From the NCBI GenBank assembly GCA_963711485.1, contig CAVQEM010000084.1, forward strand, positions 50,180 through 114,179: 64,000 nucleotides of DNA, in the 5' to 3' direction. A model generated the notes under the pieces. It saw nothing but the letters and a program-made list of their open reading frames with translations. It ran no database searches and had not been told where the DNA came from. Below are positions 12,488 through 51,362 of the stretch, piece by piece. A program made the position numbers and the translations under genes. How positions within the stretch are numbered: position 1 is the first letter of the stretch; every line of letters starts with the position of its first letter. The stretch comes from an uncultured Actinomycetes bacterium. Lineage in GTDB: Bacteria > Actinomycetota > Actinomycetes > Streptosporangiales > Streptosporangiaceae.

Positions 12488-13198
12488 ATGACCGGACCGG
12501 TGCCCAGTGGTATCGACGAGATCGGCTTGCTGCCCGGCAGTCACGTCTGCGCCTTCTACCGCGGTGATACCGATCGCGACCGGCTGCTGAACGGGTACCT
12601 CGGTGCGGGGCTCACCGCCGGGGACAAGTGCATCTGCGTCGTGGACTCCGCGGACACCGCGGAGCGGCTCGGGTCACTGCCCGGTGCCGGCCGCGGGCCC
12701 GGGCACTGCGCCGGCCAGCTGGACATCCACCTGCCCGAATCGACCTACCTGGCTGGCGGCGAGTTCACCACCAGCGACATGCTCACGTTCTGGACCGAGA
12801 GCATGGTCAAGGCAGAGGTCGAGGGTTACTCCTTCTGCCGTCTCGTCGGCGAGATGACGTGGGCGCTGCGCGACGCGCCCGGGGTCGAGCACCTGGTCAG
12901 CTACGAGTCGGAGCTGAACCGGGTCACCTCCAGTTACCCCGTCGTCGTGCTCTGCCTGTATGACCTGGACCGCTTCAGCGGCGAGGTCGTGGTCAACATC
13001 GTCAAGACCCACCCGCAGGTGCTGATCCAGGGCATCCTCGTGGAGAACCCGTACTACGTCGGGCCGGATGAGTTCCTCGCGCCGGATGAGCACCTCGGGC
13101 CGGGTGAGCACCTCAGGCCGCCGGGTGAGCACCTCGGGCCGGGCACCCCCCGGTCGGCCAGAACCGTGCCCGCGGCCCCCCGGTCGGCAAGTGCCTGA
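12488..13198 (+). CDS. MEDS-domain sensor protein (DcmR-like), copy 1
   Basis: SHVCAFYRGDTDRDRLLNGYLGAGLTAGDKCICV ... VVLCLYDLDRF ... THPQVLIQG. It is a paralogue of 25028..25721. Confidence 0.75.
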   Translation: MTGPVPSGIDEIGLLPGSHVCAFYRGDTDRDRLLNGYLGAGLTAGDKCICVVDSADTAERLGSLPGAGRGPGHCAGQLDIHLPESTYLAGGEFTTSDMLTFWTESMVKAEVEGYSFCRLVGEMTWALRDAPGVEHLVSYESELNRVTSSYPVVVLCLYDLDRFSGEVVVNIVKTHPQVLIQGILVENPYYVGPDEFLAPDEHLGPGEHLRPPGEHLGPGTPRSARTVPAAPRSASA

Positions 13199-13210
13199 CC
13201 GGCGCCCCCG

Positions 13211-14935
13211 ATGACCGCCGACCAGACATCCCGGAACACCGCGGCCGTGGTGCGGCTGCCCCGGCGTCCCGGCCGGCCTGCCGACGCGGACCTGCGCGAG
13301 CGGCTGGGTGAGTTCCGGGCCCTGCTGGTGATCTCGCTGCTGATGACCGAGTCCGTCAACGAGGAGCAGATCCTCGAACTGGCCGCCTCCAGCGCTCCCG
13401 GGCTCGGTCCCTGGCTGATCGAGGGCTACGGGTTCACCGACGGCCAGTGGCGTCCCGGACCGGGCCAGCCCGCGGCCGCGCCGGGCGGCCTGACCGGTCA
13501 GCTGGCCAGCCTGGGCAGCGCGGGCGGCCTGGTTGACCTGCCCGGCCGCCCGTGGGCGTGGGCCTACCCGCTGCGCGGCATCGCCGGGCCGCTCGGCCAC
13601 CTGGTCGCCTCCTGCGACGTGGAACCCTCCGCCGGGCAGCGGTTCATGATCCAGGTCATCGCGCAGCAGACGGGCGTGGCCGTATCCAACGCGCGGCTGC
13701 ACGCCCGGGAGCGCGCCACCGCGGCCGAACTCGCCGCCACCAACGAGGCGCTCGCCGAGAGCGTCACCACCCTGCAGCGCAGCATGGACATCCACCAGCG
13801 GCTGACCAGGGTGGCGGTCTCCGGCGAAGGCCAGCCCGGTATCGCCCGGGCCCTGCACGAGCTCACCGGGATGCCGGTCTCGATCGAGGACCGCTACGGG
13901 AACCTGACCGCCTGGGCCGGCCCCGGGCAGCCGGTCCCGTACCCGAAGGAGTCCTTCGCCCAGCGCGAGCACCTGCTCCGCCGGCTGATGCGGGCCAGCT
14001 CACCGACCCGGGACGGGGAGCGGCTCATCCTGCTCGCCTCGCCGCGGACCGACGTGATGGGGGTCCTGGCCCTCATCGACCCGGAGCGGCGCGCCGACCA
14101 CGCCGATCTCGTGGCCCTGGAGCACGGCGCGACCGTCTTGTCCATGGAACTGGCCCGGCTGCGCGGCATCGCCGACGCGGAACTGCGGCTGCGCCGCGAC
14201 CTGGTCCATGACCTGCTGGCCGGGACCGACGACGAGAGCGCGCTGACCCGCGCCGAGGCGCTGGACTACGACCTGCGGCGGCCGCACCGGGTGGTGATCG
14301 TGGAAGGCAAGGGCCGGGCCCGGGCCCACGATGCGCTGCTCAGCGCGGTCCGGCGGGCCATGCGCCAGGCCCGGCAGGACGGGCTGTTCGAAACCTGGTC
14401 CGGCAACGTCGCGGTGATCACCGCAGGCCAGACGGACTGGGAGCAGCTGCGCCGCGCGATCATGTCCGACCTCGGCGGACAGGTCCGCGTGGGGGTGGGC
14501 GGCACCGCGGGCCAGCCCTCCGAGCTGACCCGGTCCCTGCGCGAAGCCGGCCTCGCGCTGCGGCTGCAGAAGACACTGCTGCCCGGCAACAGCGCCTGCG
14601 AGTACCCCAAGCTCGGCATCTTCCGGATGCTGGCGGCCATCCCGGACCTCACCGACGTGGACTCGTTCGTCCGGGAGTGGCTCGGCAGCCTGCTCGACTA
14701 CGACGCGCGCCGCAAGGCCGAGCTGGTGCACACGCTGACCCAGTACCTGGAGCACGGCGGCAATTACGACGCCACCGCCGCCGCGCTGTCGGTGCACAAG
14801 AGCACGCTGAAGTACCGGCTGCAGCGGATCCGCGAGCTCACCGGCCTGGAGCTGAACGACCCCGACGTGCACTTCAACCTGCAGCTCGCCACCCGGGCGT
14901 GGGGCACGCTGCAGGCCCTGCACGACGAGCGCTGA
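13211..14935 (+). CDS. PucR/CdaR-family transcriptional regulator (GAF-like N-terminus, PucR C-terminal HTH), copy 1
   Basis: C-terminus YLEHGGNYDATAAALSVHKSTLKYRLQRIRELTG. Starts 12 nt after the MEDS gene. Confidence 0.8.
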   Translation: MTADQTSRNTAAVVRLPRRPGRPADADLRERLGEFRALLVISLLMTESVNEEQILELAASSAPGLGPWLIEGYGFTDGQWRPGPGQPAAAPGGLTGQLASLGSAGGLVDLPGRPWAWAYPLRGIAGPLGHLVASCDVEPSAGQRFMIQVIAQQTGVAVSNARLHARERATAAELAATNEALAESVTTLQRSMDIHQRLTRVAVSGEGQPGIARALHELTGMPVSIEDRYGNLTAWAGPGQPVPYPKESFAQREHLLRRLMRASSPTRDGERLILLASPRTDVMGVLALIDPERRADHADLVALEHGATVLSMELARLRGIADAELRLRRDLVHDLLAGTDDESALTRAEALDYDLRRPHRVVIVEGKGRARAHDALLSAVRRAMRQARQDGLFETWSGNVAVITAGQTDWEQLRRAIMSDLGGQVRVGVGGTAGQPSELTRSLREAGLALRLQKTLLPGNSACEYPKLGIFRMLAAIPDLTDVDSFVREWLGSLLDYDARRKAELVHTLTQYLEHGGNYDATAAALSVHKSTLKYRLQRIRELTGLELNDPDVHFNLQLATRAWGTLQALHDER

Positions 14936-15174: not shown

Positions 15175-16833
15175 ATGATCGACGTACGCAACCCGGGCGA
15201 CGGATTCAGGTCGTTGCGGGCGCGGATCGCCGCGCTCGGGACACTCGGCGACCGTGACCGCGGCGCGGACGGCGCCCCGCTGACTGTGGGCGAGTGGGCC
15301 CTGCTGATCGACGACATCGTGGACCACCCGGCGGACAACACCGAGGGCCTGTGGAACGTGGCCGGGCCGGACGAGGACAACCGCGAGTACGACGCGATCT
15401 TCGTGGGCGGCGGCGCGAGCGGCCGCTTCGGCTCGGCCTTCCTGAAGGCCCGGGGCGGCCGCCAGCTCACCATCGACGCGTGGCCGTTCCTCGGCGGCTC
15501 CTGCCCGCACCAGGCCTGCGTGCCGCATCACCTGTTCTCCGAGGCCGCCCGGGAGATGGACCTGGCCCGGCACATGCAGGGCCGCCTGTGGTACCCGCCG
15601 TTCGACGAGAAGCGGGCCAGCATCCAGGAGATCGTCGACCTGTTCAAGGCCGGCCGGATGTACCCGCACGCCATCATGAACTGGCAGTCCAAGGAACAGC
15701 TGGACATGGAGTTCATCCTGAACACCCCGGCCAGGATCATCGACGCCCACACGGTCGAGGTGGAGGGCCGCCGGTTCACCGCCCGGAACCTGGTGCTGTG
15801 CACCGGCGCGCGGACCAGGTACCCGGACATCCCCGGCATCGGGATCAAGGGCGTGTTCGACTTCGCCACGCTCATCGAGGACCTGGACTACGAGCCGAAC
15901 CGCTGCGTGATCATCGGCGGATCCAAGGTGGCCCTGGAGTACGGGTCGTTCTTCCAGGCCACCGGCTGCCAGACCACGATCCTGACCCGCAGCCCGCTGA
16001 TGGAGACGGCCAGCCTGCACCACGTGGACGCGGGCCTGCGCGAGTACGTGGTCGCGATGATGGCCGACCGGGGCATCGAGATCATCGAGGGTGCCGAACC
16101 GCTCGAGGTGCTCGGCAACGGCAAGGTCACGGGGGTCCGCTACCAGGAGCCGGGCGGCGCGATCCGGCAGATCGACACCGATTTCGTGTTCGTCGGCACC
16201 GGCGAGCGTCCCGACCTCAGCATGTACGCGCCCCTCGGGCTGGCCACCGACGAGCGAGGGTTCGTGATCGCGGACACCCACATGCGCACCTCGGTGCCCG
16301 GGGTGTACGCGGCCGGTGACCTGGTCGGCCCGCCGATGGAGATGTTCAAGGCGCGCAAGTGCGGGGTGGGCGCGGCCCGCAACATCATGGGCGAGGACTA
16401 CGAGTTCGACTTCACCGAGTACCCGGACTTCCTGCACACCACGTACGAGGTGACCTGGTGCGGCCTGTCCGAGGCGGAAGCGAAGGCGAAGTACCGGAAC
16501 GTGATCAAGATCCAGATGCCGCCGGACGACGCCGACCCGGAGACGTTCGCGCTCCCGGCCGCCGAGGGCTCGATGCTGTACGCGTTCACCCGGCCGATCC
16601 TGTCCGGCTGGCTCAAGCTGGTCATCGACGCGGACAGCCGCAAGGTCCTCGGCGCGCACCACGTCGGGTACGGGGCCAAGGACGCGTTCCAGTACATCGA
16701 CTACCTGATCCGCCTGCCCGAGGGCTTCACCATGGACCAGATGGCCGAGCTGAACGAGCTGTTCCTCAACCCGGAGCACTTCATCCAGCTGTGCCGGCTG
16801 CGCGCGGGCCAGAGCAGCCCGGTGAACCTGTGA
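15175..16833 (+). CDS. xecC: NADPH:2-ketopropyl-CoM oxidoreductase/carboxylase (2-KPCC)-type disulfide oxidoreductase
   Basis: GGAGGG RBS sits 6 nt upstream. Motifs: EYDAIFVGGGASGRFGSAFL, WPFLGGSCPHQACVPHHLF (redox CxxxxC), GPPMEMFKARK, GAHHVGYGAKDAFQY, and ELFLNPEHFIQLCRLRAG in place of the usual HPT..E His-Glu dyad. Confidence 0.85.
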   Translation: MIDVRNPGDGFRSLRARIAALGTLGDRDRGADGAPLTVGEWALLIDDIVDHPADNTEGLWNVAGPDEDNREYDAIFVGGGASGRFGSAFLKARGGRQLTIDAWPFLGGSCPHQACVPHHLFSEAAREMDLARHMQGRLWYPPFDEKRASIQEIVDLFKAGRMYPHAIMNWQSKEQLDMEFILNTPARIIDAHTVEVEGRRFTARNLVLCTGARTRYPDIPGIGIKGVFDFATLIEDLDYEPNRCVIIGGSKVALEYGSFFQATGCQTTILTRSPLMETASLHHVDAGLREYVVAMMADRGIEIIEGAEPLEVLGNGKVTGVRYQEPGGAIRQIDTDFVFVGTGERPDLSMYAPLGLATDERGFVIADTHMRTSVPGVYAAGDLVGPPMEMFKARKCGVGAARNIMGEDYEFDFTEYPDFLHTTYEVTWCGLSEAEAKAKYRNVIKIQMPPDDADPETFALPAAEGSMLYAFTRPILSGWLKLVIDADSRKVLGAHHVGYGAKDAFQYIDYLIRLPEGFTMDQMAELNELFLNPEHFIQLCRLRAGQSSPVNL

Positions 16834-17573
16834 TGCCGCCGCCACCGGACCATCCGCGGGTCGCCGTGGTCACCGGGGGCGCCTCCGGGATCGGCCTGGC
16901 CACCTGCGGGCGGCTGGCCGGCGAGGGCTTCACCGTGGCCGCGCTGGACATGAAGCCGGACGGCGCGGCCGGGACGGCGGCGATGGCTCTGCGCTGCGAC
17001 GTCACCGAGCCCGGCGACGTGGACCAGGCCATGAGCGAGGTCGCCGCGCGACTCGGCCCCATCGACGTCCTGGTCAACAACGCCGGCATCACCGGCTCCC
17101 AGGCCGCGGCTCGCTGCCACGAGACCCCGGTGGCGGAGTGGGACCGGGTCCAGGCGGTCAACGTGCGCGGCCCGTTCCTGTGCAGCCGCGCGGTGCTGCC
17201 GTCCATGATCGCTCGCGGGTCCGGCCACATCATCACGATCGCGTCGATCGCCGGGCTGGTCGCCTTCCCGGGCCGGTGCGCGTACACCGCGTCCAAGGGT
17301 GCGGCGCTGATGCTCACCCGGTCGATCGCGGTGGACTACGCGGCGGCCGGCATCCGGGCCAACGCCGTCTGCCCGGGCATGGTGTACACCCCGATGACCA
17401 GCTGGCGGCTGGACCAGCCGGACCTGCGGGCCCAGGTGGAAGACCGGATCCCGATGGGGCGGGTGGCCGAGCCCGCCGAGATCGCGGACGCGGTCGCGCT
17501 GCTGGCTTCCGGGCGGCTCGGCTACATGACCGGCCACCCGCTGGTCGTGGACGGCGGGATGTCAGCCCTGTAA
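16833..17573 (+). CDS. short-chain dehydrogenase/reductase (candidate 2-hydroxyalkyl-CoM dehydrogenase)
   Basis: TGGASGIG, NNAG and YTASK motifs. The start overlaps the 2-KPCC stop (TGATG). Confidence 0.8.
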   Translation: MPPPPDHPRVAVVTGGASGIGLATCGRLAGEGFTVAALDMKPDGAAGTAAMALRCDVTEPGDVDQAMSEVAARLGPIDVLVNNAGITGSQAAARCHETPVAEWDRVQAVNVRGPFLCSRAVLPSMIARGSGHIITIASIAGLVAFPGRCAYTASKGAALMLTRSIAVDYAAAGIRANAVCPGMVYTPMTSWRLDQPDLRAQVEDRIPMGRVAEPAEIADAVALLASGRLGYMTGHPLVVDGGMSAL

Positions 17574-17626
17574 GCGCAGGGACCGGCGGCGGACGGTTTT
17601 CGTTGCGGAAAAAAAGGCGGGACACG

Positions 17627-18400
17627 ATGACAGGCAAGCTGACGGGCAAGACAGCCGTGGTGACCGGGGCGGGGTCGGGGATCGGCCGGGCCGCCGCCAC
17701 GCTGTTCGCCCGCGAGGGCGCGGCGGTGGCGGTGCTGGACCTCGACGCCGACGCGGCCAAGACGGCGGCGGAGGAGATTACCGCCTCCGGCGGCACGGCG
17801 ATCGCCGTCGCGGCGAACGTCGCCGACCGGCTGCAGGTCGCCAGCGCCTTCGACCAGGTCTCTAACGGCTTCGGGCGTATCGACGTGCTTTACAACAACG
17901 CGGGTGTGAACAGCAGCGGGTCGGTCATCGACGCCAGTGACGATGACTGGGACCGGAGCTTCGCGGTGAACGCAAAGGGCACGTTCCTGTGCTCCCAGGC
18001 CGCCGCGCCGTCGATGGTGGCGGCCGGCGGCGGGTCGATCATCAACCAGGGCTCGGTCGCCGCCCTGGTCGGCATCGCGAACTTCGCCTCCTACTGCGCG
18101 TCCAAGGGGGCGGTGGTCGCGCTGACCAGGTCGATGTCCGTGGACCTGGCCCCGCGCGGGGTCCGGGTCAACGTGATCTGCCCGGGCACGGTGTACACGC
18201 CGCTGATGGAGCCCATGCTGCGGGCCCGCGGTGGCGGGGACATGGCGGCCGGGCTGGCGCTGACCGTGGCCAAGTACCCGATCGGCCGGCTCGGCACGCC
18301 GGAGGAGATCGCCGCGGTCGCGCTGTTCCTGGCCAGCGACGACTCCTCGTTCCTGACCGGCTCGGTGATCACCGCGGACGGCGGCATGACTTCCCAGTGA
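17627..18400 (+). CDS. short-chain dehydrogenase/reductase (second candidate 2-hydroxyalkyl-CoM dehydrogenase)
   Basis: TGAGSGIG, NNAG and YCASK motifs. It is the third gene of the 2-KPCC operon. Confidence 0.8.
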   Translation: MTGKLTGKTAVVTGAGSGIGRAAATLFAREGAAVAVLDLDADAAKTAAEEITASGGTAIAVAANVADRLQVASAFDQVSNGFGRIDVLYNNAGVNSSGSVIDASDDDWDRSFAVNAKGTFLCSQAAAPSMVAAGGGSIINQGSVAALVGIANFASYCASKGAVVALTRSMSVDLAPRGVRVNVICPGTVYTPLMEPMLRARGGGDMAAGLALTVAKYPIGRLGTPEEIAAVALFLASDDSSFLTGSVITADGGMTSQ

Positions 18401-18544: not shown

Positions 18545-18717
18545 AAATCAGGGGCGGGGTTTGCCTCCGGACTCCGTTAGTTCTGCGCCCGGATTCTTCT
18601 ACGCTCCGGGTGACCTACCTGATCCACGGGGCGGTGGAGCGTGGGCACAGTTGAGTCACCGGCAGGCACAGCACCGGCAGGACAGCCGGCGGCCGCCGCC
18701 GCCCGTGCCGCGACGAG

Positions 18718-20437
18718 GTGGTCCTGCTCCGCAGCCAGCTGACCAACCTGCGGGCGCTCCTGGTGCTGTCCATCCTGATGACCGAGAGCGCGGACGACCA
18801 GCAGATCCTGCGGCTGGCCACGTCCGCGGCCGCCTCACTGGGCAGCTGGCAGATCGCGGGTTTCGTGATCGGGGACGCGTGGTGGGCCGGCAGCCGCCGC
18901 TGCGGCGCCCCCGGCCCGGAGCTGGCCGCCGAGCTCCAGGCCCTGCCCGAGGCCGGCGGGCCAGTGACCAGCCTGGACGCCGGGTGGGCCTGGGCGTACC
19001 CGTTGCGGAGCATCGCGGGGCGGCTCGGCCACCTGATCGTGCACGCCGCGCGCGAGCCCGCGGTCGAGGAACAGTTCCTGGCCCAGGTGCTCGCCCAGCA
19101 GACCGGGGTGGCGGTATCCAACGCCCAGCTGCACGTGCGGGAGCGGGACATCGCGGAGCAGCTGGCCGCCACCAACGGCGCGCTCGAGGAGACGGTCGCC
19201 ACGCTGCGCCACGGCATGGCCATCCACGAGCGGCTCACCCGGGTCGCAGCGGCCGGCGAGGGCGCGGCCGGCATCGCCGAGGCGCTGCACGACCTGACCG
19301 GGCTCGCGGTCGCGGTGGAGGACCGCTACGGCAACCTGTCCGCGTGGTCCGGCCCGGGCCAGCCGGCCCGGTACCCGAAACTCGCCGCCTACGAGCGGGA
19401 GCAGCTGCTGCGCCTGCTGATGACCGCCGGCCGGTCGGTCCGCGACGGCGACCGCGTGGTCGCCCTGGCTTCGCCCCGCCCCGGCGTGCTCGGGCTGCTC
19501 GCCCTGATGGATCCCGGGCACCAGGCGGGCACCACGGACGTGATGGCCCTGGAGCACGGCGCCACCGTCCTCGCCGTCGAGCTGGCCCGGCTGCGCGGGC
19601 TGGCCGACACCGAACTGCGGGTCCGCCGCGAGCTGGTGCACGACCTGCTGACCGGCACCGACGACGAGAGCGCCCGCCTGCGCGCCGAGGCGCTCGGGTA
19701 CGACCTGGGGCGGCCGCACCAGGTGGCGGTGGTGGAGGTGGCCGAGAGCTCGCCGGCCCAGGAGGAGGTGCTGCACGCCACCCGCCGGGTGCTGCGCCAC
19801 CAGCACCGGCCCTGCCTGCTGGGCAGCATGGCGGGCACGGTGGTGATCGTGGCGCCAGCCATTTCGCCGGCCGCGCCGGGTGCGCCGGATGCGCCGGGTG
19901 GGCCGGGTGGCCTGCCACGGCGACCGCGCCGGCTGGGAAGCGCTGCGCGCCGGCATCGTGGCCGAGCTGGGCGGCAGCCGCTGCCGGATCGGCGTCGGCG
20001 ACGCCTACCCGCGGCCCTCGGAGCTGTCCCGCTCGCTGCGCGAGGCGCGGCTCGCGCTGCGGATGCAGGAGGCGTCCGCGTCGGCCGAGCGGACCTCGGT
20101 GTTCGCGGACCTCGACGTGCTGCGGATGCTGGCCGCGGTGGACGACCTGACCGATGTGGAGGCGTTCGTCCTCAAGTGGCTCGGCACGCTGGCGTCCTAC
20201 GACGAGCGCAAGCACACCGAGCTGGTCAAGACGCTGATCCAGTACCTGCAGCACGGCGGCGGGTACGAGGCCACCTCCCGGGCGCTGTCCGTGCACCGCA
20301 GCACGCTGAAGTACCGGCTGCAGCGGATCCGCGAGCTGACCGGCTTCGACCTGGGCAACCCCGAGACCCACTTCAACCTGCAGCTCGCGACCCGGGCCTA
20401 CGTGACCCTCCAGGCCCTCGGCGATACTCCGGCCTGA
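18718..20437 (+). CDS. PucR/CdaR-family regulator, copy 2, with a frame break near 19905-19915
   Basis: The N-terminal 380 aa (frame of 18718) and C-terminal 170 aa (frame of 19880, ...YLQHGGGYEATSRALSVHRSTLKYRLQRIRELTG) are both collinear with copy 1. The break lies in a gcgccgg-rich repeat. Confidence 0.7.
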
Positions 20438-20533
20438 ACCGGGGCGGCCTGAGCCTGCGTGTCGCACGGACTGCGCTCGGTTGGGCCTGCCAGGACGAGG
20501 CCCGGTGCGCGGCGCCACCGTAGCGTCCTGGCC

Positions 20534-35079: not shown

Positions 35080-35093
35080 GCTGTGCCGCGCCG

Positions 35094-42725: not shown

Positions 42726-42870
42726 CGGACCCCCCGTTCCAACCGTCATCAACCGATGCGGCAGTGGGAGCAACCATCTCCCGATGCGGATGTTACTACG
42801 ATTTGCACTCAATATGCTACTCACCGTAAGCTGACGGTCTCAGCGCCGAACGCGTTGACCGGGAGGCACG

Positions 42871-44094: not shown

Positions 44095-44195
44095 GGAAGA
44101 AACTCGCTGATCAGCCGGCCTACGCTCCTGGGATCTAGCTGGGCCCGTGCGGCTGGAGCACGGCAACCGGAGCTGCGCAAGCGGAAGGAGCGACG

Positions 44196-45299
44196 ATGCT
44201 CATCGGCGGTCAGGACATCCTGCTGCCCACCACGATGGTGGGCAACTACCCGAATCCACGGTGGTACGACGGGCACGCGTTCGCGACGCTGCCCAAAGGT
44301 GAATTCATCCACGACTCGATCAGCAAGGAAGCGTTCGAGGACGTCGTCGGCGCGATCGTGCGCGACCAGGAGGCAGCGGGCCTGGACGTGATCAGCGACG
44401 GCAAGGTGTACGGCGGGGACTCCCCGTACGGCACGATCCTGTACTACTACCTGGAGCGCATGTCCGGCTACCGGCTGTCCGGGCCGCCCATCGGACTCCC
44501 GATCTACTCCACGCTCTTCTCCCCCACCTGCGTCGGCGAGATCAGCCGGGAAGTCCCGTTCCATCTGGTCAACCTGCGCGCGGTCCGGAAGGCGACCAGG
44601 AAGCCGGTCAAGGTGTCCTACACCGGGCTGGGCGTGATCGCCGCGGCCACCACGAACCTGCACTACAAGGACACCAGAGAAGTCGCCATGGCGCTGGCCA
44701 AGGCATTCAACGAGGACTTCAAGGAACTCGCCGACAACGGCTGCGACATCATCCAGCTGGATGAGTTCGTCTGGCCGTACGGCATGGGCGACTGGGAGAT
44801 CGAGGCGCTCAATGCCTCGGTCGAGGGCGTGAACTGCGAGTTCTGGGTGCACACCTGCTGGGGCAACTACTCCGGCACGCCCGCCTACTTCCCGGACGAG
44901 ACCACGACCGAGTTCGGCGCGTTCGTGCTGGACAAGCGGGCCTCCGACGCCCCGGCCCCGGAGCGGGCCCACGCGATCTTCCCGCACGTGCTCGACGCGA
45001 ACATCACCGCGCTGAACTACGAGGTGGGCCGGACCGGGCCGGACGACCTCAAGCCGCTGACCGACAACAACTGGACCAAGCCGTTCGTGGCCGGGGTCAT
45101 CGACGTGAAGTCCACGGTGACCGAGAGCGCGGACGAGGTCGCCGACCGGATCAGGCAGGTCCTCGAGTACGTGCCCGCGGACCGGCTCGGCCTGTCCACC
45201 GACTGCGGGCTCATCAACCTGCCCCGGATGATCGCCGCGGGCAAGCTGCGCGCGCTGGCCGACGGCGCCGCGATGGTCCGGGCCGAAGTCCAGGGTTAG
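44196..45299 (+). CDS. MetE-fold zinc alkyltransferase, epoxyalkane:CoM transferase-like, copy 2
   Basis: 367 aa with GGAAGGAG RBS. FWVHTCWGN and STDCGL ligands. First gene of the CoM biosynthesis operon region. Confidence 0.75.
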   Translation: MLIGGQDILLPTTMVGNYPNPRWYDGHAFATLPKGEFIHDSISKEAFEDVVGAIVRDQEAAGLDVISDGKVYGGDSPYGTILYYYLERMSGYRLSGPPIGLPIYSTLFSPTCVGEISREVPFHLVNLRAVRKATRKPVKVSYTGLGVIAAATTNLHYKDTREVAMALAKAFNEDFKELADNGCDIIQLDEFVWPYGMGDWEIEALNASVEGVNCEFWVHTCWGNYSGTPAYFPDETTTEFGAFVLDKRASDAPAPERAHAIFPHVLDANITALNYEVGRTGPDDLKPLTDNNWTKPFVAGVIDVKSTVTESADEVADRIRQVLEYVPADRLGLSTDCGLINLPRMIAAGKLRALADGAAMVRAEVQG

Positions 45300-45472: not shown

Positions 45473-46297
45473 GTGCCCGAGTGTCCCACCTTCCTCCGGC
45501 TGCCCGCCCGGGCGGCCAAGCCCCGGTCCCGTGGCGTCACGCACGTGCTGGACAGCGGGCTCACCCCGGAGGGCACCCGGGCCTTCCTGGGCCAGGCCGG
45601 GCACCTGGTGGACATCGTGAAGGTGGGGTGGGGCATCGGGTATGTCGATCCGGCGCTGGAGGAGCGGGTCGGCATCTGCGCGGACTATGACTGCCCGGTC
45701 TCGCCGGGCGGGACCCTGCTCGAGGTGGCCGCGCTGCAGGACCGGATCGGTGAGCTGCGGGACTGGGCGCTCAAGGTCGGGATGACCCACATCGAGGTGT
45801 CCAACGGGCTGCGGGCGCTCTCGGCCGGCCGGAAGCACGCCCTGGTCCGCGAGCTGGCCGCGGACTTCGTGGTGCTCGCGGAGACCGGCGCGAAAGAGGG
45901 GAACCACCCGCCCACCCCGGCGGAGTGGGCCGAGGAGATGGCCCGCGACCTCGACGCCGGCGCCACGTGGGTGATCGCCGAGGGCCGGGAGAGCGGCACC
46001 GTCGGTCTGTACCACCCGGACCAGGGCATCCGCGAGGATCTGGTGACGGCCATCCTGGACTGGATCCCCCAGGACAAGGTGATCTTCGAGGCCCCGGGCA
46101 AGAGCCAGCAGGCCTGGTTCATCCGCCAGCTCGGGGCGGACGTCAACCTCGGCAACATCGCGCCGGCCAGCGTCCTGGCCCTGGAAACGCTGCGGCTCGG
46201 CCTGCGCGCCGACACCGTCCCGGCCTGTGCTCCGGCACCGGGCGCTCCGGCACCGGGCGCCCTCGGCACCTCGGCGCCCTGGCCTGAGATGCCCTGA
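45473..46297 (+). CDS. comA: (2R)-phospho-3-sulfolactate synthase
   Basis: GTG at 45473, 7 nt after GGGAGG. KPRSRGVTHVLDSGL, VDIVKVGWG and HIEVSNG are ComA family blocks. Confidence 0.85.
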   Translation: MPECPTFLRLPARAAKPRSRGVTHVLDSGLTPEGTRAFLGQAGHLVDIVKVGWGIGYVDPALEERVGICADYDCPVSPGGTLLEVAALQDRIGELRDWALKVGMTHIEVSNGLRALSAGRKHALVRELAADFVVLAETGAKEGNHPPTPAEWAEEMARDLDAGATWVIAEGRESGTVGLYHPDQGIREDLVTAILDWIPQDKVIFEAPGKSQQAWFIRQLGADVNLGNIAPASVLALETLRLGLRADTVPACAPAPGAPAPGALGTSAPWPEMP

Positions 46298-46298
46298 C

Positions 46299-47282
46299 GT
46301 GATCGCCGAGCCCGCTCCCAACACGATCACCCGGCCCTACCGCGGCCTGTCTGTGCAGGACGTTGACGTGCCGCTCACCCCGGCCGGCATCGGGGGCCTG
46401 CTGAGTCACCGGGAGATCTACCGGCGGACCGCGTTCCTGGTGCTCCGCAACGGTGAGCAGACCGCGCTCGTGGCGGTCCGCCCCGCCGATCCCGGCCCGC
46501 TGTTCTCCCCGGTCGCGGAGCTACGCGTGCTCTCCGGCCCGGCCAGCACGGCCTGGATCACCGATGGGGATGCCGACGTGGGCAACGCGTCCTCGCTCGC
46601 CGCGGTCGCGCTCAAGCATCAGCGTGACGGCGTGCTCGCCTACGTGGTCCAGGGAAAGTTCGAGCACGTCAACTTCATCTGGCGGCCCGCCCCGGTCCAG
46701 GTCCGGGTCACTGAGGTCGTCCCGCCGCACCCGCCGAAACTGCTGGCCATGGCCGAGCAGGTGGTCGCCTACGACGAAGACCTGCCCCCGCTCGACCTGG
46801 TCCTCGACGCCGTGGACGTGAGTGAGCTGGTCGCTGCTAACCCGGCGCCGCACTACCTGCTGCCCTGCCGCGGCAGCGGCATGCCCGCCGGCCAGCAGGT
46901 CAGCTTCCTGGACACCCACCCGCCCTACCACGACGACTGGCTGCTCATCGGCTGCGAGCGCTCGCGCCAGTTCCACGAGCATTTTTACCTAACGGAATCG
47001 TCCCGGGTCGATCTCTGCCCGAAAGCGAGGGCAGGGGCGGGCCAGACCGGGGAGCGGGTACTCACCAAATGCTGCCTCATGGAACGCGGCATAGAGGTTG
47101 ACGGCACGACCGCCGTGGTGCCGTGGGGCGCCAACCTTGACGAAGTACGGGCCGCCCTCCGGGCCCTCTGCGGCATCCCGCCGGTGGACATGGGCGCGGC
47201 CGCCGGGGAAGCAGCGCCGGGCGCCGAGGCGCGCGCTGACGCCGCCCCTGCGGCCCCGGCACCGGGGGGCAGCCCGGCATGA
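46299..47282 (+). CDS. conserved-looking hypothetical protein, Cys-rich C-terminal half, embedded in the CoM operon
   Basis: GTG lies 1 nt after the comA stop and the gene ends in an ATGA overlap with the next gene. Contains LLPCRGSG, LLIGCERSRQFHEHFY, DLCPK and LTKCCLMERG. I recognise no domain. Confidence 0.6.
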   Translation: MIAEPAPNTITRPYRGLSVQDVDVPLTPAGIGGLLSHREIYRRTAFLVLRNGEQTALVAVRPADPGPLFSPVAELRVLSGPASTAWITDGDADVGNASSLAAVALKHQRDGVLAYVVQGKFEHVNFIWRPAPVQVRVTEVVPPHPPKLLAMAEQVVAYDEDLPPLDLVLDAVDVSELVAANPAPHYLLPCRGSGMPAGQQVSFLDTHPPYHDDWLLIGCERSRQFHEHFYLTESSRVDLCPKARAGAGQTGERVLTKCCLMERGIEVDGTTAVVPWGANLDEVRAALRALCGIPPVDMGAAAGEAAPGAEARADAAPAAPAPGGSPA

Positions 47283-48637
47283 CCAGCGCCCACCCCGCCG
47301 ACTCGGCGGTCTTCGGCCACCTCTGGACCACGCCGGAGGCCTCCGCCCTGTTCACAGACGAGGGGCGGACTCAGTCATGGCTGCAGATCCTGGCCGCGCT
47401 GGCCCGGGCCCAGGCGGACGCAGGCCTGGTGCCGCCGGCCGCCGCCGAGGCGATCCGGGCCCATGCCGAGGCCGGGCTGATCGACCTGGACCTGGTGGCG
47501 AAACTGACGCGGGAGACCGGGCACTCGACCATGGGCCTGATCCGGGCGCTGCGTGACGTGCTCCCGGAGGAGGCACGCGAGTGGGTGTACTACGGCGCCA
47601 CCGTGCAGGACCTGACTGACACATGGTTCGCGCTGGTGTTCCGGGCCGTGGGAGACATCGCGGAACGGGATGTGACGCGGATGCGGGACCGGGCCCTCGT
47701 CCTGGCCGGGGAGTACCGGGATACGCCGATGTGCGGGCGGACGCACGGGCAGCCCGGGCTCCCGATCACGTTCGGCTTCAAGGCGGCCGTGTGGGCCGCG
47801 GAACTCGACCGGCACCTGCAGCGGCTCCGGCAGGGCCGGGCCCGGTGGGAGGTCGTGCAGCTCGGCGGGGCGCTCGGGACGATGGAGTTCTGGGGCGACC
47901 GGGCCCTGGACCTGCTGGAGGGCTTCGCCGGGCAGCTGGGGCTCGGCGTTCCGGTGGTGCCCTGGATCACGGCGCGGGACGGGGTGGCCGAGTTCATCTG
48001 GCTGCTCGCCGCGATCTCCGCGACGGCCGGCAAGATCGGCAACGAGGTCTACCAGCTGCAGCGGCCGGAGATCGGGGAGCTGCGGGAGTCGTTCACCCCC
48101 GGCACGGTCGGGTCGATCACCATGCCGCACAAGCGCAACCCGGAGATCTCCGAGCACCTGGTCACCCTGTCGCGGGTGATCCGGGCCCAGGCCGCCGTGG
48201 CCCTGGACGGGATGCTGTCCGAGCACGAGCGGGACGGCCGGGCGTGGAAGGCCGAGTGGCTGGTGGTGCCGGAGACCTCGATGGCGTTCGCGGCCTGCGC
48301 AGGATCCGCGGCCCGGATGCTGGACGGGTTGGGGGCCGACCCGGCCCGGATGCTCGCCAACATCGACAGCCACCGCGGCTACCTGCTGTCCGAGCCGGTC
48401 ATGCGGGCGCTGGCCGACCGGCTCGGCAAGCACTCCGCGCACGACAGCGTGTACGCCGCGGCCATGCACGGCATCGACTCCGGGCAGGACTTCCGCACCG
48501 CGCTGCGCGCGGACACCAGGCTGGACGCGATCCCCGACGCCGAACTCGACACGCTGCTCGAGGTACGGTCCTCGCTCGGCTCGTGCGCCGCGTTCGTGGA
48601 CCGGGTCCGGCGGGAGTGCGCGGGTGCAGGGCGGTGA
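47279..48637 (+). CDS. aspartase/fumarase-superfamily lyase, adenylosuccinate-lyase-like (XcbC/XcbD-type candidate)
   Basis: GRTHGQPGLPITFG and the signature loop GSITMPHKRNP. Confidence 0.8.
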   Translation: MTSAHPADSAVFGHLWTTPEASALFTDEGRTQSWLQILAALARAQADAGLVPPAAAEAIRAHAEAGLIDLDLVAKLTRETGHSTMGLIRALRDVLPEEAREWVYYGATVQDLTDTWFALVFRAVGDIAERDVTRMRDRALVLAGEYRDTPMCGRTHGQPGLPITFGFKAAVWAAELDRHLQRLRQGRARWEVVQLGGALGTMEFWGDRALDLLEGFAGQLGLGVPVVPWITARDGVAEFIWLLAAISATAGKIGNEVYQLQRPEIGELRESFTPGTVGSITMPHKRNPEISEHLVTLSRVIRAQAAVALDGMLSEHERDGRAWKAEWLVVPETSMAFAACAGSAARMLDGLGADPARMLANIDSHRGYLLSEPVMRALADRLGKHSAHDSVYAAAMHGIDSGQDFRTALRADTRLDAIPDAELDTLLEVRSSLGSCAAFVDRVRRECAGAGR

Positions 48638-49853
48638 GCGCGGGGGGCCGGGGGGAGCGCGGGAGTGCCGCGGTGACCCCCGGGCCACCGGCAGCCAGTC
48701 CCGGGGCTGACGCAGGCCGTTTCCGGGCCGGCCCCCACCTGGCGGACCTGGCGCGCGTGGACCTGGTCCTCGCCCCCACCCCGCTGCACCCCGCACCCCG
48801 GCTGTCACGTGAGCTTGGGGTTTCGTTGCGGCTGAAAAGGGACGACCTGGCCGGCGCCGGACTGGGCGGCAACAAGCTGCGCGGCCTGGAATTTATCATC
48901 GCCGACGCGCTCGCCCAGGGCTGCGACAGCCTGGTGACCGGGCCGGCCCGCAGTCGAACTGGACGATGCTGGCCGCCCTGGCCTGCCTCCGGTATGGGCT
49001 TGAGCCGCACGTCGTGTGCTACGGCACCGGAGCCGCGCACGAGGCCGGCCGGGCCGAGGGCAACATGCGGCTGCACCGCTGGCTCGGGGTGGATGTGCGG
49101 TTCACCGGTGTGGCGGAGCGGTCGTCGGTGGACGCGGGCATCGCCGCGGTCACCGCGGAGCTGCGCGCCGCGGGCCGGCGGCCGTATCCGGTGCCCCGCG
49201 GCGGCGCGACTCCGCTGGGCGCGCTCGGCTACGTCCGGGCCAGTGTGGAGCTGGCGGCCCAGCTGGCCGTCCTGGATGAGCCGCCGGCCGGGCTGTGGCT
49301 GGCCACCGGGTCCTGCGGGACCCAGGCCGGGCTGGTCGCCGGCGCGGCCCTCACCCGGGCGCCCTACCAGGTCGTGGGCGTGACCGTGAGCCGCACGGCC
49401 CAGGAGTGCGCCGACCGGGTCCGGGAGCTGGCCGGCGCGGCGGCGGCGCTAGGCGGTATCGACGCGGACCTTCCCGGGCCGGACGTGCGGGACGGCTGGA
49501 TCGGGCCGGGCTACGGCGTCCCGTCGGCGGCCGGCATGGCCGCCGCGCGGCTCGTCGCGGCGACCGAGGGCGTGTTCCTGGACCCGGTGTTCGGGGCCAA
49601 GGCCATGGCCGCCCTGATCGCCGGCTGCCGCGAGGGCCTGGTGCACGGTCCGCAGGTATTCCTGGTCAGCGGGGGCGCACCCACGCTGTTCGCCGGAACC
49701 GCGCTGGCCGGGCCGGCGCCAGAGGGGCCCATGCCTGACGGACCGGCGCTCCCCGGCCCGGCGCTCCCCGGGCCGCCTCCCGGCCCGGCACTCCCCGGCC
49801 CGGCACTCCCCGGGCCTGCCGGACCGGACGGATCCGGAAGTGAGGCGCGATGA
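48634..49853 (+). CDS. PLP-dependent D-cysteine desulfhydrase / ACC deaminase-like enzyme (XcbE-type candidate), frame break near 48940-48950
   Basis: TPLHPAPRLSRELGVSLRLKRDDLAGAGLGGNKLRGLEF (PLP Lys) in one frame, then QSNWTMLAALACLRYGLEP... in the frame of 48966. GTGA overlap upstream and ATGA overlap downstream. Confidence 0.7.
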
Positions 49854-51362
49854 ACGCAGTCCGTCCACCCGAGGGCTACCTCGGTACCGCGGCCCGCATC
49901 ACCAGCGGGCCCGCCCCCGAGCTGGTCGAGGCTGGTTACGCGCTGGAGATCGGCGACGCGCCGCTGCTGCACCGGGGCCTGACCCTGGCCGACCTGGCGC
50001 ACCTCGTCGAGCTGGTCGAGTGCGGCGCGATCACCCGCCAGGAGGCGGCGCCAGTGGTCGCGGTGCTGCTCAAGCTGCTCGACTCACCGGCCGGCGATTT
50101 CCCCTATGACCCGGTGTACGGCGACGCCTACAACAGCCGGGAACGGGAACTGGAGCGCGAACTCGGCCCGGCGGCCGGCCGCCTTCACCTGGGCCGGACT
50201 CGCCGCGAGGCAGGCCGCATCGCGTTCCGCCTCGCCCTGCGGGACCGGCTGCTCAGCCTGCACACCGACGTGTCCACCTTCGCCCGTGCGGTCGCGGACC
50301 AGGCCACCCGGCAGTCCGGCACGCTCTGGGCCGACACGACTTACCTGCAACCCGCCCAGCCGTCCACGTTCGGCCACTACCTGGGCGGCTTCGCTGAGCA
50401 GTCCGTGCGCCACCTGGACCGGATCGAGGCCGCCTACGGGCTCGCGGACGTCTCCCCTGCCGGGGCCGGTGGGGTGGGCGGGACACGTCTGCCGCTGGAC
50501 CGGGGCCGGCTGGCCCGCGGGCTCGGTTTCGGCGCGGTAGGCCCGCATACCCGGGACGCGATGTGGTCGGCCGATGCCCTGGCCGACGCGGTCCTCGCGG
50601 CCGCGCAGGCCGTGGCGACCATCAGCCAGCTGGCCTCGGACCTGGAGATCTTCGCCAGCCCCGCGTTCGGCTACGTGACGCTGGACGCCTCGCTGTGCCG
50701 GGCCAGCGTGCTCATGCCGCAAAAACGCAACCCCTACGCGCTGCCGGTCCTGCGCGGCGGCGCGGGCACGCTGGTCGGCCGGCTGCACCGGGCTGCTGGC
50801 GACCGGCCTTACCCCATCCGCCCGCACCGACAACTGGCTGTACGCCTACGGCGAGGTGGCCGGGGCCCTCGACCTCGCCGGCCGTCTCGTCCGGCTGGGA
50901 TCGGCGGTGGTGAGCGGCCTGACCGTGAACGCCGGCGTCCTGGCCGAGCAGGCGGTCAGCCATTTCACCGCGGCCGCCGACCTTGCGGAGGAGCTGACCC
51001 AGCGTTACGGGCTCGACTACCGCACGGCCTACCGGGTCGTCGGCCGGGCCGTCGCCGCCACCCTGGCCGGCGGCGGGGGGAAACTGACCGTGGATGTCGT
51101 ACGCGCCGCCACCGTGGAGATCACCGGAGCCGAGCTGCCCATCACCGCGGACCTGCTCAGCGCCGTGTCGGACCCGGCCACGGTCGTGGCGGCCCGTGAC
51201 GCCCCCGGTGGCGCGAGCCCCCGCCGGGTCCGGGAGCACGCCCGGCGGGTCCGGCGCCGCGTGGTAGCGGCCCGGCAGTGGAATGCCGCCCGCCGGGGCC
51301 GCCAGGCCGAGGCGGAAGCCGCCCTGATCAGCGCCGCCCAGGCCGTCACGTCCGGCGCCTGA
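49850..51362 (+). CDS. aspartase/fumarase-superfamily lyase, argininosuccinate-lyase-like (XcbC/XcbD-type candidate), frame break near 50785
   Basis: TYLQPAQPSTFGHYL and SVLMPQKRNP in the frame of 49850. The C-terminal domain (TGLLATGLTPSARTDNWLYAYGEVAGALDLA...) is in the frame of 50856. Confidence 0.7.

Follow-up and report, generated by a model that had tools for sequence, protein, structure and literature searches.

Gene content and layout of the locus

The stretch analysed here, called the window throughout, is 64,000 nucleotides of contig CAVQEM010000084.1 from an uncultured Actinomycetes bacterium of the Streptosporangiaceae, and it carries an island of genes for the synthesis and use of coenzyme M (CoM). 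The first part of the island (12.5-33.6 kb) holds a homologue of the CoM-dependent carboxylase 2-KPCC, two short-chain dehydrogenases/reductases (SDRs), two sets of putative regulators, the alpha and beta subunits of a pyruvate dehydrogenase (PDH)-type E1 enzyme, two MetE-fold proteins and a group of genes with coenzyme A (CoA)-related functions, all on the plus strand except an aldehyde dehydrogenase gene. The second part (44.2-51.4 kb) consists of etnE1, encoding a predicted epoxyalkane:CoM transferase (EaCoMT), and the CoM biosynthesis genes (Table 1). The window has a G+C content of about 72%, which fills lists of open reading frames (ORFs) with spurious frames; genes were called by third-position GC bias and confirmed with Pfam, NCBIfam and homology.

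A first-pass annotation of the window, made from its letters and ORFs, had listed a 2-KPCC-type enzyme, two SDRs, three MetE-fold proteins, comA, lyases, a DcyD-like enzyme, E1 alpha/beta and a flavoprotein resembling CoA-disulfide reductase (CoADR-like). All of these were recovered at the positions given there; the picture had to be corrected in that the aldehyde dehydrogenase gene lies on the minus strand and five island genes are frameshifted.

The flanks are made up of ordinary chromosomal genes (otsA, otsB, a subtilase gene, a LytR-family gene, a NUDIX gene, dprA and an IS66 remnant). The closest nucleotide relative, on the 2.68-Mb contig CAVYJW010000003.1 (locus L005; related loci are cited by such numbers), runs collinear with the window at 87-95% identity, the glycosyl genes in between included, indicating that the window is chromosomal and comes from an organism related but not identical to that of L005. 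A known plasmid as the source of the window was rejected, since megablast against plasmids gave only partial matches at 73-80% identity, among them matches to pNOCA01 of Nocardioides sp. JS614 and to the plasmids of Mycolicibacterium chubuense NBB4.

Table 1. Features of the window (positions in nucleotides from its first letter; PLP, pyridoxal phosphate; TPP, thiamine pyrophosphate)
Feature	Position	Strand	Length	Domains and remarks
Nitroreductase-family gene and SnoaL-like gene	10795-12126			Just left of the island
tRNA-Thr (TGT)	12199-12274	-		Directly left of the first island gene
MEDS-domain sensor, EtnR2-like, first copy	12500-13198	+		Pfam MEDS, E=1.2e-41
CdaR/PucR-type activator, EtnR1-like, first copy	13211-14935	+		Pfam GGDEF_2, HTH_30
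2-KPCC-type NADPH:2-ketoalkyl-CoM oxidoreductase/carboxylase homologue	15175-16833	+	552 aa	Disulfide oxidoreductase
SDR, R-hydroxypropyl-CoM dehydrogenase (R-HPCDH)-like	16830-17573	+
SDR, etn-cluster type, weakly S-HPCDH-like	17603-18400	+
PucR-type regulator, EtnR1-like, second copy	18703-20437	+		Two frames, break near 19860-19934
E1 alpha, PDH-type TPP-dependent 2-oxoacid dehydrogenase	20459-21634	+		Start uncertain, domain from about 20690
E1 beta	21622-22635	+		Pfam Transket_pyr, Transketolase_C; NF006667 334.8 bits (over the 321 cut-off)
EtnE2, second EaCoMT-type transferase	22758-23870	+	370 aa	Meth_synt_2; between E1 beta and MetE3
MetE3, third MetE-fold zinc protein, distinct subfamily	23920-24960	+	346 aa	Meth_synt_2
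MEDS sensor, EtnR2-like, second copy	25064-25721	+		Two frames, break near 25345-25452
S9 (prolyl-oligopeptidase family) remnant	25806-26516			Between second MEDS and aldehyde dehydrogenase
CoA-acylating aldehyde dehydrogenase (Ald), SauS/EutE-like	26556-28082	-		Start (28082) from translation
CoADR-like flavoprotein	28215-29624	+		Pfam Pyr_redox_2
CoA-transferase subunit A	29621-30553	+		Pfam CoA_trans; 70% identical to JS614
CoA-transferase subunit B	30550-31393	+		Frameshift near 30900
NDP-forming acyl-CoA synthetase (Acs)	31387-33567	+		Pfam CoA_binding_2, Succ_CoA_lig, ATP-grasp_5
Interrupting block of unrelated genes	33628-44094		10.6 kb	Between the Acs gene and etnE1
Conserved non-coding element	44046-44131		~85 nt	Upstream of etnE1
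EtnE1, EaCoMT	44196-45299	+	367 aa	Meth_synt_2
XcbB/ComA phosphosulfolactate synthase	45473-46297	+		Pfam ComA, E=2.2e-75
XcbA-family protein	46299-47282	+		Pfam DUF7714; NF052538 407.7 bits (cut-off 150)
XcbD-type, adenylosuccinate-lyase-like enzyme	47279-48637	+		Pfam Lyase_1, ADSL_C; would add cysteine to sulfoacrylate
XcbE-type, DcyD-like PLP enzyme	48640-49853	+		Pfam PALP; start approximate; frameshift at 48942
XcbC-type, argininosuccinate-lyase-like enzyme	49850-51362	+		Pfam Lyase_1, ASL_C2 in two frames; frameshift near 50785; proposed to eliminate phosphate from phosphosulfolactate
IS66-family transposase remnant	59245-60207	-		Two adjoining ORFs, each matching part

Predicted enzymes of CoM-thioether formation and turnover

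EtnE1 is 78.5% identical to EtnE of JS614 (80% at the nucleotide level to pNOCA01) and 50.5% identical to XecA of Xanthobacter autotrophicus Py2. EtnE2 is 66% identical to JS614 EtnE, 49.6% to XecA, 64.6% to EtnE1 and 66% to the R. rhodochrous EaCoMT Q93A86, and both proteins are predicted to be of the EaCoMT type. The zinc ligands His-x-Cys, Glu and Cys are kept in all three MetE-fold proteins of the island (HTCWG/HICYG, E and DCGL). With the NCBIfam methionine synthase model NF003317 (cut-off 406), EtnE1, EtnE2 and MetE3 reach only 196.7, 184.6 and 176.1 bits, in agreement with the earlier view that they are not methionine synthases.

The protein encoded at 15175 was compared with the 2-KPCC of X. 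autotrophicus (PDB 1MO9), to which it scores 596.6 bits over residues 35-551, while the runner-up, mercuric reductase, scores 123.5 bits. It therefore groups, as first proposed, with 2-KPCC and not with glutathione or mercuric reductases. Its identity is 67% to the JS614 homologue and 53.7% to Py2 XecC, and in the alignment to 1MO9 it keeps CPHQAC (Cys82/Cys87), His137, Met140, Phe501/His506, Arg56 and Arg365, with the motifs CPHQAC, PHAIMN, FLNPEH, GRFGS and FKARK at matching positions. We take the CxxxxC pair to be redox-active, the Phe501...His506 arrangement to replace the His-Glu dyad of ordinary disulfide oxidoreductases, and Arg56 and Arg365 to bind the sulfonate. The protein is thus assigned, on sequence, to the 2-KPCC family.

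For the first SDR (16830-17573) the best solved structure is R-HPCDH (2CFC, 246 bits; runner-up 163), and Ser142, Tyr155, Lys159, Arg152 and Arg196 are all conserved in the alignment. Presumably Arg152 and Arg196 are the sulfonate-binding residues and Ser-Tyr-Lys the catalytic ones. With 53% identity to XecD and 66% to the JS614 SDR, this enzyme is clearly R-HPCDH-like in sequence. The second SDR (17603-18400) is 70% identical to JS614 SDRs and 44% identical to XecE; its best PDB match, S-HPCDH (4GH5, 202 bits), has no meaningful margin over the next, unrelated SDR (191 bits). At the positions that we take to bind the sulfonate in S-HPCDH (Arg211/Lys214), the Lys is kept and the Arg position is apparently Thr.

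CoM biosynthesis genes

The five-gene bacterial CoM pathway was biochemically defined by Wu et al. 2022 (PMC9457059). Following the nomenclature of that work, in which XcbD is the adenylosuccinate-lyase-like enzyme, the gene at 47279-48637 is XcbD-like and the one at 49850-51362 XcbC-like; XcbA carries out the final reduction step to CoM (PMC9457059). The identities are 57% to JS614 and 35% to Py2 XcbB for the XcbB protein, and 57% to JS614 and 43% to Xaut_4874 for the XcbD-type protein. The XcbE-type gene matches JS614 in two high-scoring segment pairs (HSPs) that lie in separate frames (64% and 56% identity), and the two parts of the XcbC-type protein are 40% and 36% identical to Xaut_4873 and 69% and 50% to JS614. 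Since DUF7714 corresponds to the XcbA family (NF052538), the window has all five Xcb families, clustered in the order xcbB-xcbA-xcbD-xcbE-xcbC (45473-51362), and the predicted pathway is complete. Together with the CoM-thioether catabolic enzymes encoded in the island, this set agrees with the earlier claim that the organism makes and uses CoM; judged from the predicted genes, it is equipped to do both.

The C-terminus of the XcbE-type protein (49700-49853) is a proline-rich low-complexity tail, PALPGPALPGPPPGPALPGPALPGPAGP, which lies beyond the part aligned with the JS614 and NBB4 homologues.

Aldehyde dehydrogenase and CoA-branch genes

The aldehyde dehydrogenase is 73-75% identical to the enzymes of the JS614 and NBB4 etn clusters and scores 524 bits with the SauS model NF047625, under its cut-off of 600. 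The CoADR-like flavoprotein scores 350 bits with TIGR03385, likewise under the cut-off (578.8), and is 55% identical to its JS614 and 62% to its NBB4 counterpart. For CoA-transferase B the tblastn match to JS614 is divided into HSPs in two frames (78% and 71% identity), and the acyl-CoA synthetase is 50% identical to JS614 and 62% to NBB4. The N-terminus of the aldehyde dehydrogenase (27950-28082, minus strand) has a low-complexity extension of repeated ASPAG units, the DNA being imperfect GGGCTGGCT(C/T)... repeats; in JS614 and NBB4 the part of the homologue that can be aligned starts at residue 27.

Putative regulators and a conserved element upstream of etnE1

The adjoining genes at 12500-14935, MEDS followed by GGDEF_2 plus HTH_30, form a pair of the EtnR2/EtnR1 type, 45-53% identical to those of JS614 and NBB4: the MEDS protein is 48-49% identical to the JS614 MEDS proteins, and the PucR-type regulator, over its full length, 51% to JS614 and 53% to NBB4. 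Second copies of both genes lie farther downstream. The second PucR-type gene gives tblastn HSPs of 46% over JS614 residues 9-396 and 56% over residues 400-561, its GGDEF_2 domain being divided between two ORFs, and the Pfam domain of the second MEDS gene is divided over ORFs 25028-25507 and 25335-25721, again with tblastn HSPs in two frames. In NBB4 it is ethylene oxide, not ethylene, to which the EtnR1/EtnR2 pair responds, and the authors of that work noted homologues adjoining CoM genes in other actinobacteria (PMC11197473).

The non-coding element upstream of etnE1 has the core CGGTCCCCGGGNAGGGAAGAAAC ... CTACGCTCCT, in which an inverted repeat, GGGGACC-N14-GGTCCCC, is followed by AGGGAAGAAAC...CTACGCTCCT. 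In an alignment of etnE upstream regions, of which 16 rows and the 80% consensus were inspected, it is conserved between the window and up to 45 related loci. The element occurs once in the window, where none is expected by chance, and in L039 it has a second copy upstream of etnA. No sigma-70 consensus promoter was found in it. The left arm of the inverted repeat varies and the right arm shows no compensating changes; a comparison with Rfam gave no match. An RNA element was rejected on these two grounds, and the same observations suggest that 44046-44131 is probably a promoter or operator acting at the DNA level, for an EtnR1-type activator. A comparison of the island promoter regions for common operator motifs gave weak GC-rich similarities only.

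Relation to the etn and xec clusters

The etn clusters of JS614 (pNOCA01) and NBB4 (pMYCCH.01/.02), which have been studied by experiment and act on ethene, vinyl chloride and epoxyethane, contain the same families as the window, and several sub-orders are identical. Common to all three are the MEDS (EtnR2) and PucR/CdaR (EtnR1) regulators, the acylating Ald, the 2-KPCC homologue, two SDRs, the CoADR-like flavoprotein, CoA-transferase A/B, the NDP-forming acyl-CoA synthetase, EtnE, and the series ComA, XcbA, lyase, PLP enzyme, lyase. In the JS614 and NBB4 annotations the CoADR-like protein appears as 'FAD-dependent oxidoreductase', the synthetase as 'acetate-CoA ligase family' and XcbA as a hypothetical protein. 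The CoADR-like reductase, which had been counted among the modules foreign to the textbook pathway, is hence a standard member of etn clusters. The window differs from JS614 and NBB4 in several respects. It is chromosomal (with otsA/otsB, a LytR-family gene and dprA in the flanks) and not on a plasmid; etnABCD, directly after etnE in both strains, are missing; the biosynthesis genes lie downstream of etnE in the same direction; and E1 alpha/beta, MetE3 and a second EaCoMT are extra. Its cluster is also without a PAPS reductase gene and without the gene for an F420-dependent LLM oxidoreductase, the latter being present in JS614 and NBB4.

With Py2 the window shares the order 2-KPCC, R-HPCDH-like SDR, second SDR (xecC-xecD-xecE), all the signature residues of 2-KPCC and R-HPCDH, and all five Xcb families. 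On pXAUT01, however, the six-gene Xamo alkene monooxygenase adjoins xecA, and the xamo-xec-xcb region lacks the CoA-transferase, acyl-CoA synthetase and CoADR-like genes of the window; moreover, Py2 xcbA is unlinked to xcbB-E, whereas in the window xcbA stands between xcbB and the next lyase gene. Protein identity to JS614/NBB4 is 50-79% (SDRs 66-70%, CoM biosynthesis proteins 50-69%), compared with about 35-54% to the Py2 Xec/Xcb proteins (Xcb proteins up to 62%). On this basis the window is assigned, from sequence comparison, to the actinobacterial etn-type CoM clusters, closer to JS614/NBB4 than to Xanthobacter xec. The first-pass annotation had recognised the Xanthobacter Xec/Xcb enzyme set, and its families are indeed present, but the closest model is the JS614/NBB4 etn cluster and not Py2.

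CoM clusters with and without a linked alkene oxygenase

In agreement with the first-pass annotation, no oxygenase was found in the 64 kb. Searches by tblastn with JS614 EtnABCD, Py2 XamoA-F and the EtnABCD of L032 and L039 (this last set to E<=1) gave no match in the window, and Pfam scans of the called ORFs over the whole window, flanks included, gave no oxygenase domain. The window is thus predicted to hold only the epoxide half of the etn pathway, with etnABCD as the only missing part of the etn cluster.

EtnE1 was used to scan 185,579 species-representative genomes, in which 157 stretches with etnE relatives were confirmed; the locus comparisons reported here cover the best 80 of these, all at least 77% identical to EtnE1. 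They are mostly metagenome-assembled genomes (MAGs) labelled 'uncultured Actinomycetes' or Streptosporangiaceae, many of the 'MFD' series, with further MAGs from Geodermatophilaceae, Acidimicrobiales, Chloroflexota, Dormiibacterota and Acidobacteriota. The isolates among them are Amycolatopsis nalaikhensis, A. echigonensis, A. alkalitolerans, Kribbella alba, Nocardioides pocheonensis, Mycobacterium sp. SM1 and Haloechinothrix salitolerans. When the JS614 proteins were mapped on the 80 loci, the canonical order was MEDS, Ald (reverse), the FAD-dependent oxidoreductase (FADox), CoA-transferase A (CtA), CoA-transferase B (CtB), Acs, EtnE, ComA, XcbA, lyase, PLP enzyme, lyase, and this core order recurs in dozens of species-level genomes. 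The notion that bacterial CoM is limited to a few organisms fits the literature and not this genome record. Searching the literature for surveys of etnE in soil or in MAGs turned up nothing specific.

EtnABCD lie within 10 kb in only seven of the 80 loci, the other 73 having none within that distance; a CoM cluster without an oxygenase nearby is common and not exceptional. Two of the loci that have etnABCD, L032 and L039, are members of the same clade as the window, and in both the genes sit precisely at the Acs/etnE junction; L032 EtnC shares 84% identity with JS614 EtnC. This ties the cluster of the clade to alkene-derived epoxides. The spacing from Acs to etnE has a median of 179 nt across 49 loci and reaches 1.2-9.2 kb in the window's nearest clade. 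At the Acs/etnE junction of the window, remnants of etnABCD were not detected even at E<=1, and in ten relatives the junction inserts contain no oxygenase, being made up of LysE and MFS transporters, sigma factors, an HNH/DUF222 element and an NmrA-like protein. Because this spacing is variable and the sampled inserts hold no oxygenase, the two-part layout is a lineage-specific local interruption at a variable junction. The 'two-part' island of the earlier description is real as a split, then, but it is an interruption of 10.6 kb and not a design feature.

A comparable arrangement is known outside the Actinomycetota. Methylohalobius crimeensis and other methanotrophs have a stand-alone CoM epoxyethane cluster and no alkene monooxygenase in the genome; that of M. 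crimeensis is functional, is induced by ethylene and would detoxify epoxyethane made by the methane monooxygenase pMMO (Toppings et al. 2024, PMC11507031). The methanotroph cluster resembles the window in combining etnE, downstream catabolism, CoM biosynthesis and a MEDS regulator with no dedicated alkene monooxygenase (here, within 64 kb), the proposed role being epoxide removal. It differs in that its epoxide source is known (co-oxidation by pMMO), while in the window no source is linked, and also in that the sections of PMC11507031 consulted mention no E1 alpha/beta-MetE3 genes.

The E1 alpha-E1 beta-MetE3 module

MetE3 had been grouped with EtnE1 and EtnE2 as a zinc alkyltransferase of EaCoMT size. 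The zinc ligands are present in all three; the EaCoMT assignment itself holds for the proteins at 22758 and 44196 and fails for the one at 23920. MetE3 is only 29-32% identical to EaCoMTs, lacks an insertion of about 22 aa after HxC that is common to the four aligned EaCoMTs, and falls in a separate, tight orthologue group, and for these reasons it is not classified, by sequence, as an EaCoMT. Of the 274 homologues that a database search with MetE3 found at E<=1e-20, the best 120 show 66-96% identity and bear generic names (an automatic 'methionine synthase', methyltransferase or 'hypothetical protein'). Against plasmids its best matches are 29-30% identical, and the module is not found in JS614, in the NBB4 etn region or in Py2. 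The earlier remark that E1 alpha/beta and an extra MetE-like protein fall outside the textbook pathway is borne out by this absence.

E1 alpha matches Pfam E1_dh (E=8.7e-73) and scores 333.6 bits with TIGR03182, under the cut-off of 393.85; its best PDB match is human PDH E1 alpha (207 bits), and it has the motifs GDG...NN (TPP) and YR..GHS as in lipoamide-dependent E1 enzymes. E1 beta is 84-89% identical to Streptosporangiaceae-type relatives and 70-75% to more distant ones. The window encodes no lipoyl-E2.

Among the 80 etnE loci MetE3 is found in 23 (74-96% identity) and E1 beta in 20, and every locus with a long enough upstream flank has the module directly upstream of MEDS-Ald-FADox. Five further MetE3 contexts were picked from the MetE3 search, independently of etnE. 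In the isolate Nocardioides sp. CPCC 206347 (L085) the genes are XcbA, XcbD, XcbE, XcbC, Ald, PucR, E1 alpha, E1 beta, MetE3 and MEDS. A Solirubrobacterales MAG (L086/L087) has E1 alpha, E1 beta, MetE3 and a lipoyl-E2 within its CoM cluster, with a 2-KPCC homologue nearby, and another MAG (L089) is arranged in the same way. The order in a Vulcanimicrobiaceae MAG (L088) is EaCoMT, MetE3, E1 alpha, E1 beta, E2, 2-KPCC, SDR, SDR, CtA, CtB, XcbA, ComA. In a Pseudonocardia MAG (L090), MetE3 stands by two distant MetE-fold paralogues, SDRs and an ALS/Xsc-type TPP enzyme, with no Xcb genes within 10 kb. Inside CoM clusters MetE3 always adjoins E1 alpha/beta, and the association of a PDH-type E1, MetE3 and CoM genes is robust across phyla.

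EtnE2 belongs to a separate orthologue group, whose members are 74-91% identical. Among the 80 loci its insertion between E1 beta and MetE3 is seen in the window only, and it is missing there in about 20 loci whose flank reaches the module; members of the group elsewhere (L091, L092) also adjoin E1 alpha/beta or MetE3. We also noticed a fourth MetE-fold subfamily (L090 5088-6161, L090 8780-9841 and L091 11997-13079), 34-38% identical to MetE3 and 31-35% to EaCoMTs, which adjoins MetE3 or EaCoMT genes in the Pseudonocardia MAG, there by the ALS/Xsc-type TPP enzyme, and in GCA_973789725.1.

The E1 alpha-E1 beta-MetE3 module is a conserved accessory of CoM clusters, lies outside all described clusters and is a new element. 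As a guess, it would carry out a TPP-dependent step on a 2-oxo CoM thioether, either an oxidative decarboxylation of a 2-oxo acid thioether or an Xsc/phosphoketolase-like elimination of the CoM thiolate from 2-oxoethyl-CoM to give acetyl-TPP.

Frameshifts and selection on the island

Relative to their homologues, five island genes contain single-base frameshifts: the second PucR gene, the second MEDS gene, and the CoA-transferase B, XcbE-type and XcbC-type genes. All five sites are in GC-rich stretches, and that of the XcbE-type gene (48942) includes a short G run. This type of frameshift is also seen in two non-island genes, near 53324-53334 and 55440-55468, for which L005, L010 and L031 have unbroken ORFs, which suggests indel errors throughout the assembly. 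The related MFD loci are rich in split matches; the MFD MAGs are presumably nanopore-derived.

Ratios of nonsynonymous to synonymous substitution (dN/dS) were calculated by the Nei-Gojobori method between the window and L005, L007 and others. They are 0.03-0.39 for island genes and 0.12-0.37 for neighbouring non-island genes, with 0.03-0.07 for EtnE1, 0.07-0.31 for MetE3, 0.20 for the C-terminal part of the XcbE-type gene and 0.10 and 0.17 for the two halves of the XcbC-type gene. All island genes tested are thus under purifying selection. Given the frameshifts outside the island, the split matches in MFD loci and the low dN/dS, assembly indel error is a likelier origin of the five frameshifts than decay.

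Surroundings of the island

The interrupting block contains genes for a hybrid histidine kinase, a GH26 and a GH12 protein, a GT2 protein, an epimerase/dehydratase, a LuxR-type response regulator and a response-regulator/HisKA_3 protein, and is also present in L005. One segment of it (35344-36500) is found downstream of the xcb genes in other relatives, indicating rearrangement. A tRNA-integrated mobile island was considered and is not supported: the tRNA-Thr gene does lie at the left edge, but neither an att-like direct repeat nor an integrase was found, and composition shows no break between island and flanks.

The nitroreductase-family and SnoaL-like genes stand just left of this tRNA gene; the CoM cluster of Nocardioides sp. 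CPCC 206347 is likewise flanked, at L085 16967-17812, by a nitroreductase gene, together with F420-biosynthesis genes (cofD, cofH-like). The S9-peptidase fragment inside the island has lost about 1.4 kb of its middle relative to L016 and is one real lesion. The IS66-family remnant near the right end of the window is a broken insertion sequence.

Proposed pathway and alternative explanations

We consider it likely that the island encodes a chromosomal, etn-type, epoxide-responsive CoM pathway of a Streptosporangiaceae-like actinomycete whose epoxide source is unlinked. The identities of the genes come from the tools used above, and the order of the reactions is inferred from the Xanthobacter and Mycobacterium/Nocardioides models. 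XcbB, XcbC, XcbD, XcbE and XcbA would convert phosphoenolpyruvate, sulfite and cysteine to CoM, the thiol of which would open a short-chain epoxide (epoxyethane and/or epoxypropane) through EtnE1 and EtnE2, and the two SDRs would oxidise the resulting 2-hydroxyalkyl-CoM to 2-oxoalkyl-CoM. Cleavage of the thioether and recycling of CoM could follow two routes, one reductive through the 2-KPCC homologue, with or without carboxylation, the other a CoA branch made up of the acylating aldehyde dehydrogenase, CoA-transferase A/B, the NDP-forming acyl-CoA synthetase and the CoADR-like reductase; the end products would be acetyl-CoA or acetoacetate. Control would be exerted by the two MEDS/PucR pairs of EtnR2/EtnR1 type, the NBB4 system answering the epoxide and not the alkene. 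The oxygenase making the epoxide would be elsewhere in the genome or absent, and in the latter case the epoxide may arise by co-oxidation through an unrelated monooxygenase or have an extracellular origin, the cluster then being a scavenging or detoxification unit.

Four points weigh against the proposed pathway. In the actinobacterial model clusters, direct experimental support covers only etnE and the alkene monooxygenase, the downstream steps being proposals (PMC11507031). Five island genes are frameshifted, among them two of the five for CoM biosynthesis, and if these lesions were real CoM synthesis would be broken. An epoxide-forming enzyme was not found in the 44 kb upstream of etnE1 or in the 19 kb downstream of it, which leaves the substrate source unlinked. 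Finally, the model pathway offers no role for the E1 alpha/beta-MetE3 module or for the extra EtnE2.

The distance to an oxygenase could also mean that the island belongs to a complete pathway for growth on alkenes (ethene or propene), with a soluble di-iron or copper alkene monooxygenase encoded elsewhere in the genome. The catabolic genes are dispersed already, the 2-KPCC operon being 27 kb from etnE1; in Py2 and NBB4, too, they are scattered over several clusters or plasmids (PMC11507031), and the relatives L032 and L039 have etnABCD within the cluster. Set against this are a window in which neither an oxygenase nor, even at E<=1, etnABCD remnants were found, the 73 of 80 related loci that have no EtnABCD within 10 kb, and regulators that, as epoxide sensors, need no alkene oxygenase in their regulon, and we regard a full alkene pathway as a real possibility but not the one to be expected. 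It is also conceivable, if unlikely, that the main substrate is not an alkene-derived epoxide and that E1 alpha/beta-MetE3, with or without EtnE2, forms a different CoM-dependent route, in which MetE3 would for example alkylate CoM with a halo-aldehyde, a halo-alcohol or an activated C3 acid before E1 processes the 2-oxo thioether. In favour of this, the module immediately precedes the CoM core in at least 20-23 of the 80 loci, is present in the CoM clusters of the Nocardioides isolate, Solirubrobacterales, Vulcanimicrobiaceae and other MAGs (three times together with a lipoyl-E2 and beside a 2-KPCC homologue) and is missing from JS614, NBB4 and Py2, while a Pseudonocardia MAG has a MetE3 orthologue beside an ALS/Xsc-type TPP enzyme in place of E1; the conserved zinc-thiolate site of MetE3 and its low dN/dS point the same way. 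But the classical epoxide-pathway genes and epoxide-type regulators are all present and conserved beside the module, the E1 alpha motifs are canonical for a lipoamide-dependent 2-oxoacid dehydrogenase E1 while the window has no E2, and the chemistry is purely conjectural.

A decaying relic, that is, an ancestral ethene-assimilation cluster that lost etnABCD and whose CoM genes are becoming pseudogenes so that CoM is no longer made or used, would account for the five frameshifts, for the truncated S9-peptidase remnant and for an Acs/etnE junction, the site of etnABCD in L032 and L039, broken by unrelated genes. We rejected it as the principal explanation and hold it to be very improbable, since frameshifts of the same kind affect non-island genes that are intact in three relatives and dN/dS in the island is low, matching that of its neighbours. 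The sites are all single-base indels in GC-rich stretches, MFD relatives show many split HSPs, and the oxygenase-less arrangement kept in most of the related loci argues for a function without a linked oxygenase. We accordingly retain the reading of an etn-type, epoxide-responsive CoM pathway.

Implications

The core of the finding is a known pathway; what is new is the E1 alpha/beta-MetE3 module (with EtnE2) and the chromosomal, oxygenase-less setting in an uncultured lineage. The first-pass annotation had raised the prospect of a new substrate and new chemistry, and this may still hold for the E1 alpha/beta-MetE3 module alone, the remainder being known and the missing oxygenase not exceptional. 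We tentatively propose, as an idea that may well prove wrong, that the module, joined by a lipoyl-E2 in some lineages and by an extra EaCoMT here, is an undescribed branch of CoM metabolism combining a TPP-dependent conversion of CoM thioethers with a new MetE-fold zinc thiol-alkyltransferase, and that, more broadly, oxygenase-less CoM clusters are widespread in uncultured soil Actinomycetota and neighbouring phyla, which would make CoM a common bacterial scavenging cofactor for trace epoxides or other electrophiles and not one confined to rare alkene degraders. The module is a testable candidate for new CoM-dependent chemistry, with at least one cultured carrier, Nocardioides sp. CPCC 206347.

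Published work regards CoM in bacteria as an oddity found in only a few degraders of alkenes and vinyl chloride. The full cluster for its biosynthesis and catabolism is present in many uncultured soil actinomycetes, and also in isolates belonging to Amycolatopsis, Kribbella, Nocardioides, Mycobacterium and Haloechinothrix, usually without a linked alkene oxygenase, which points to a broader role of CoM in the turnover of ethylene and epoxides in soil and possibly in the natural attenuation of vinyl chloride.

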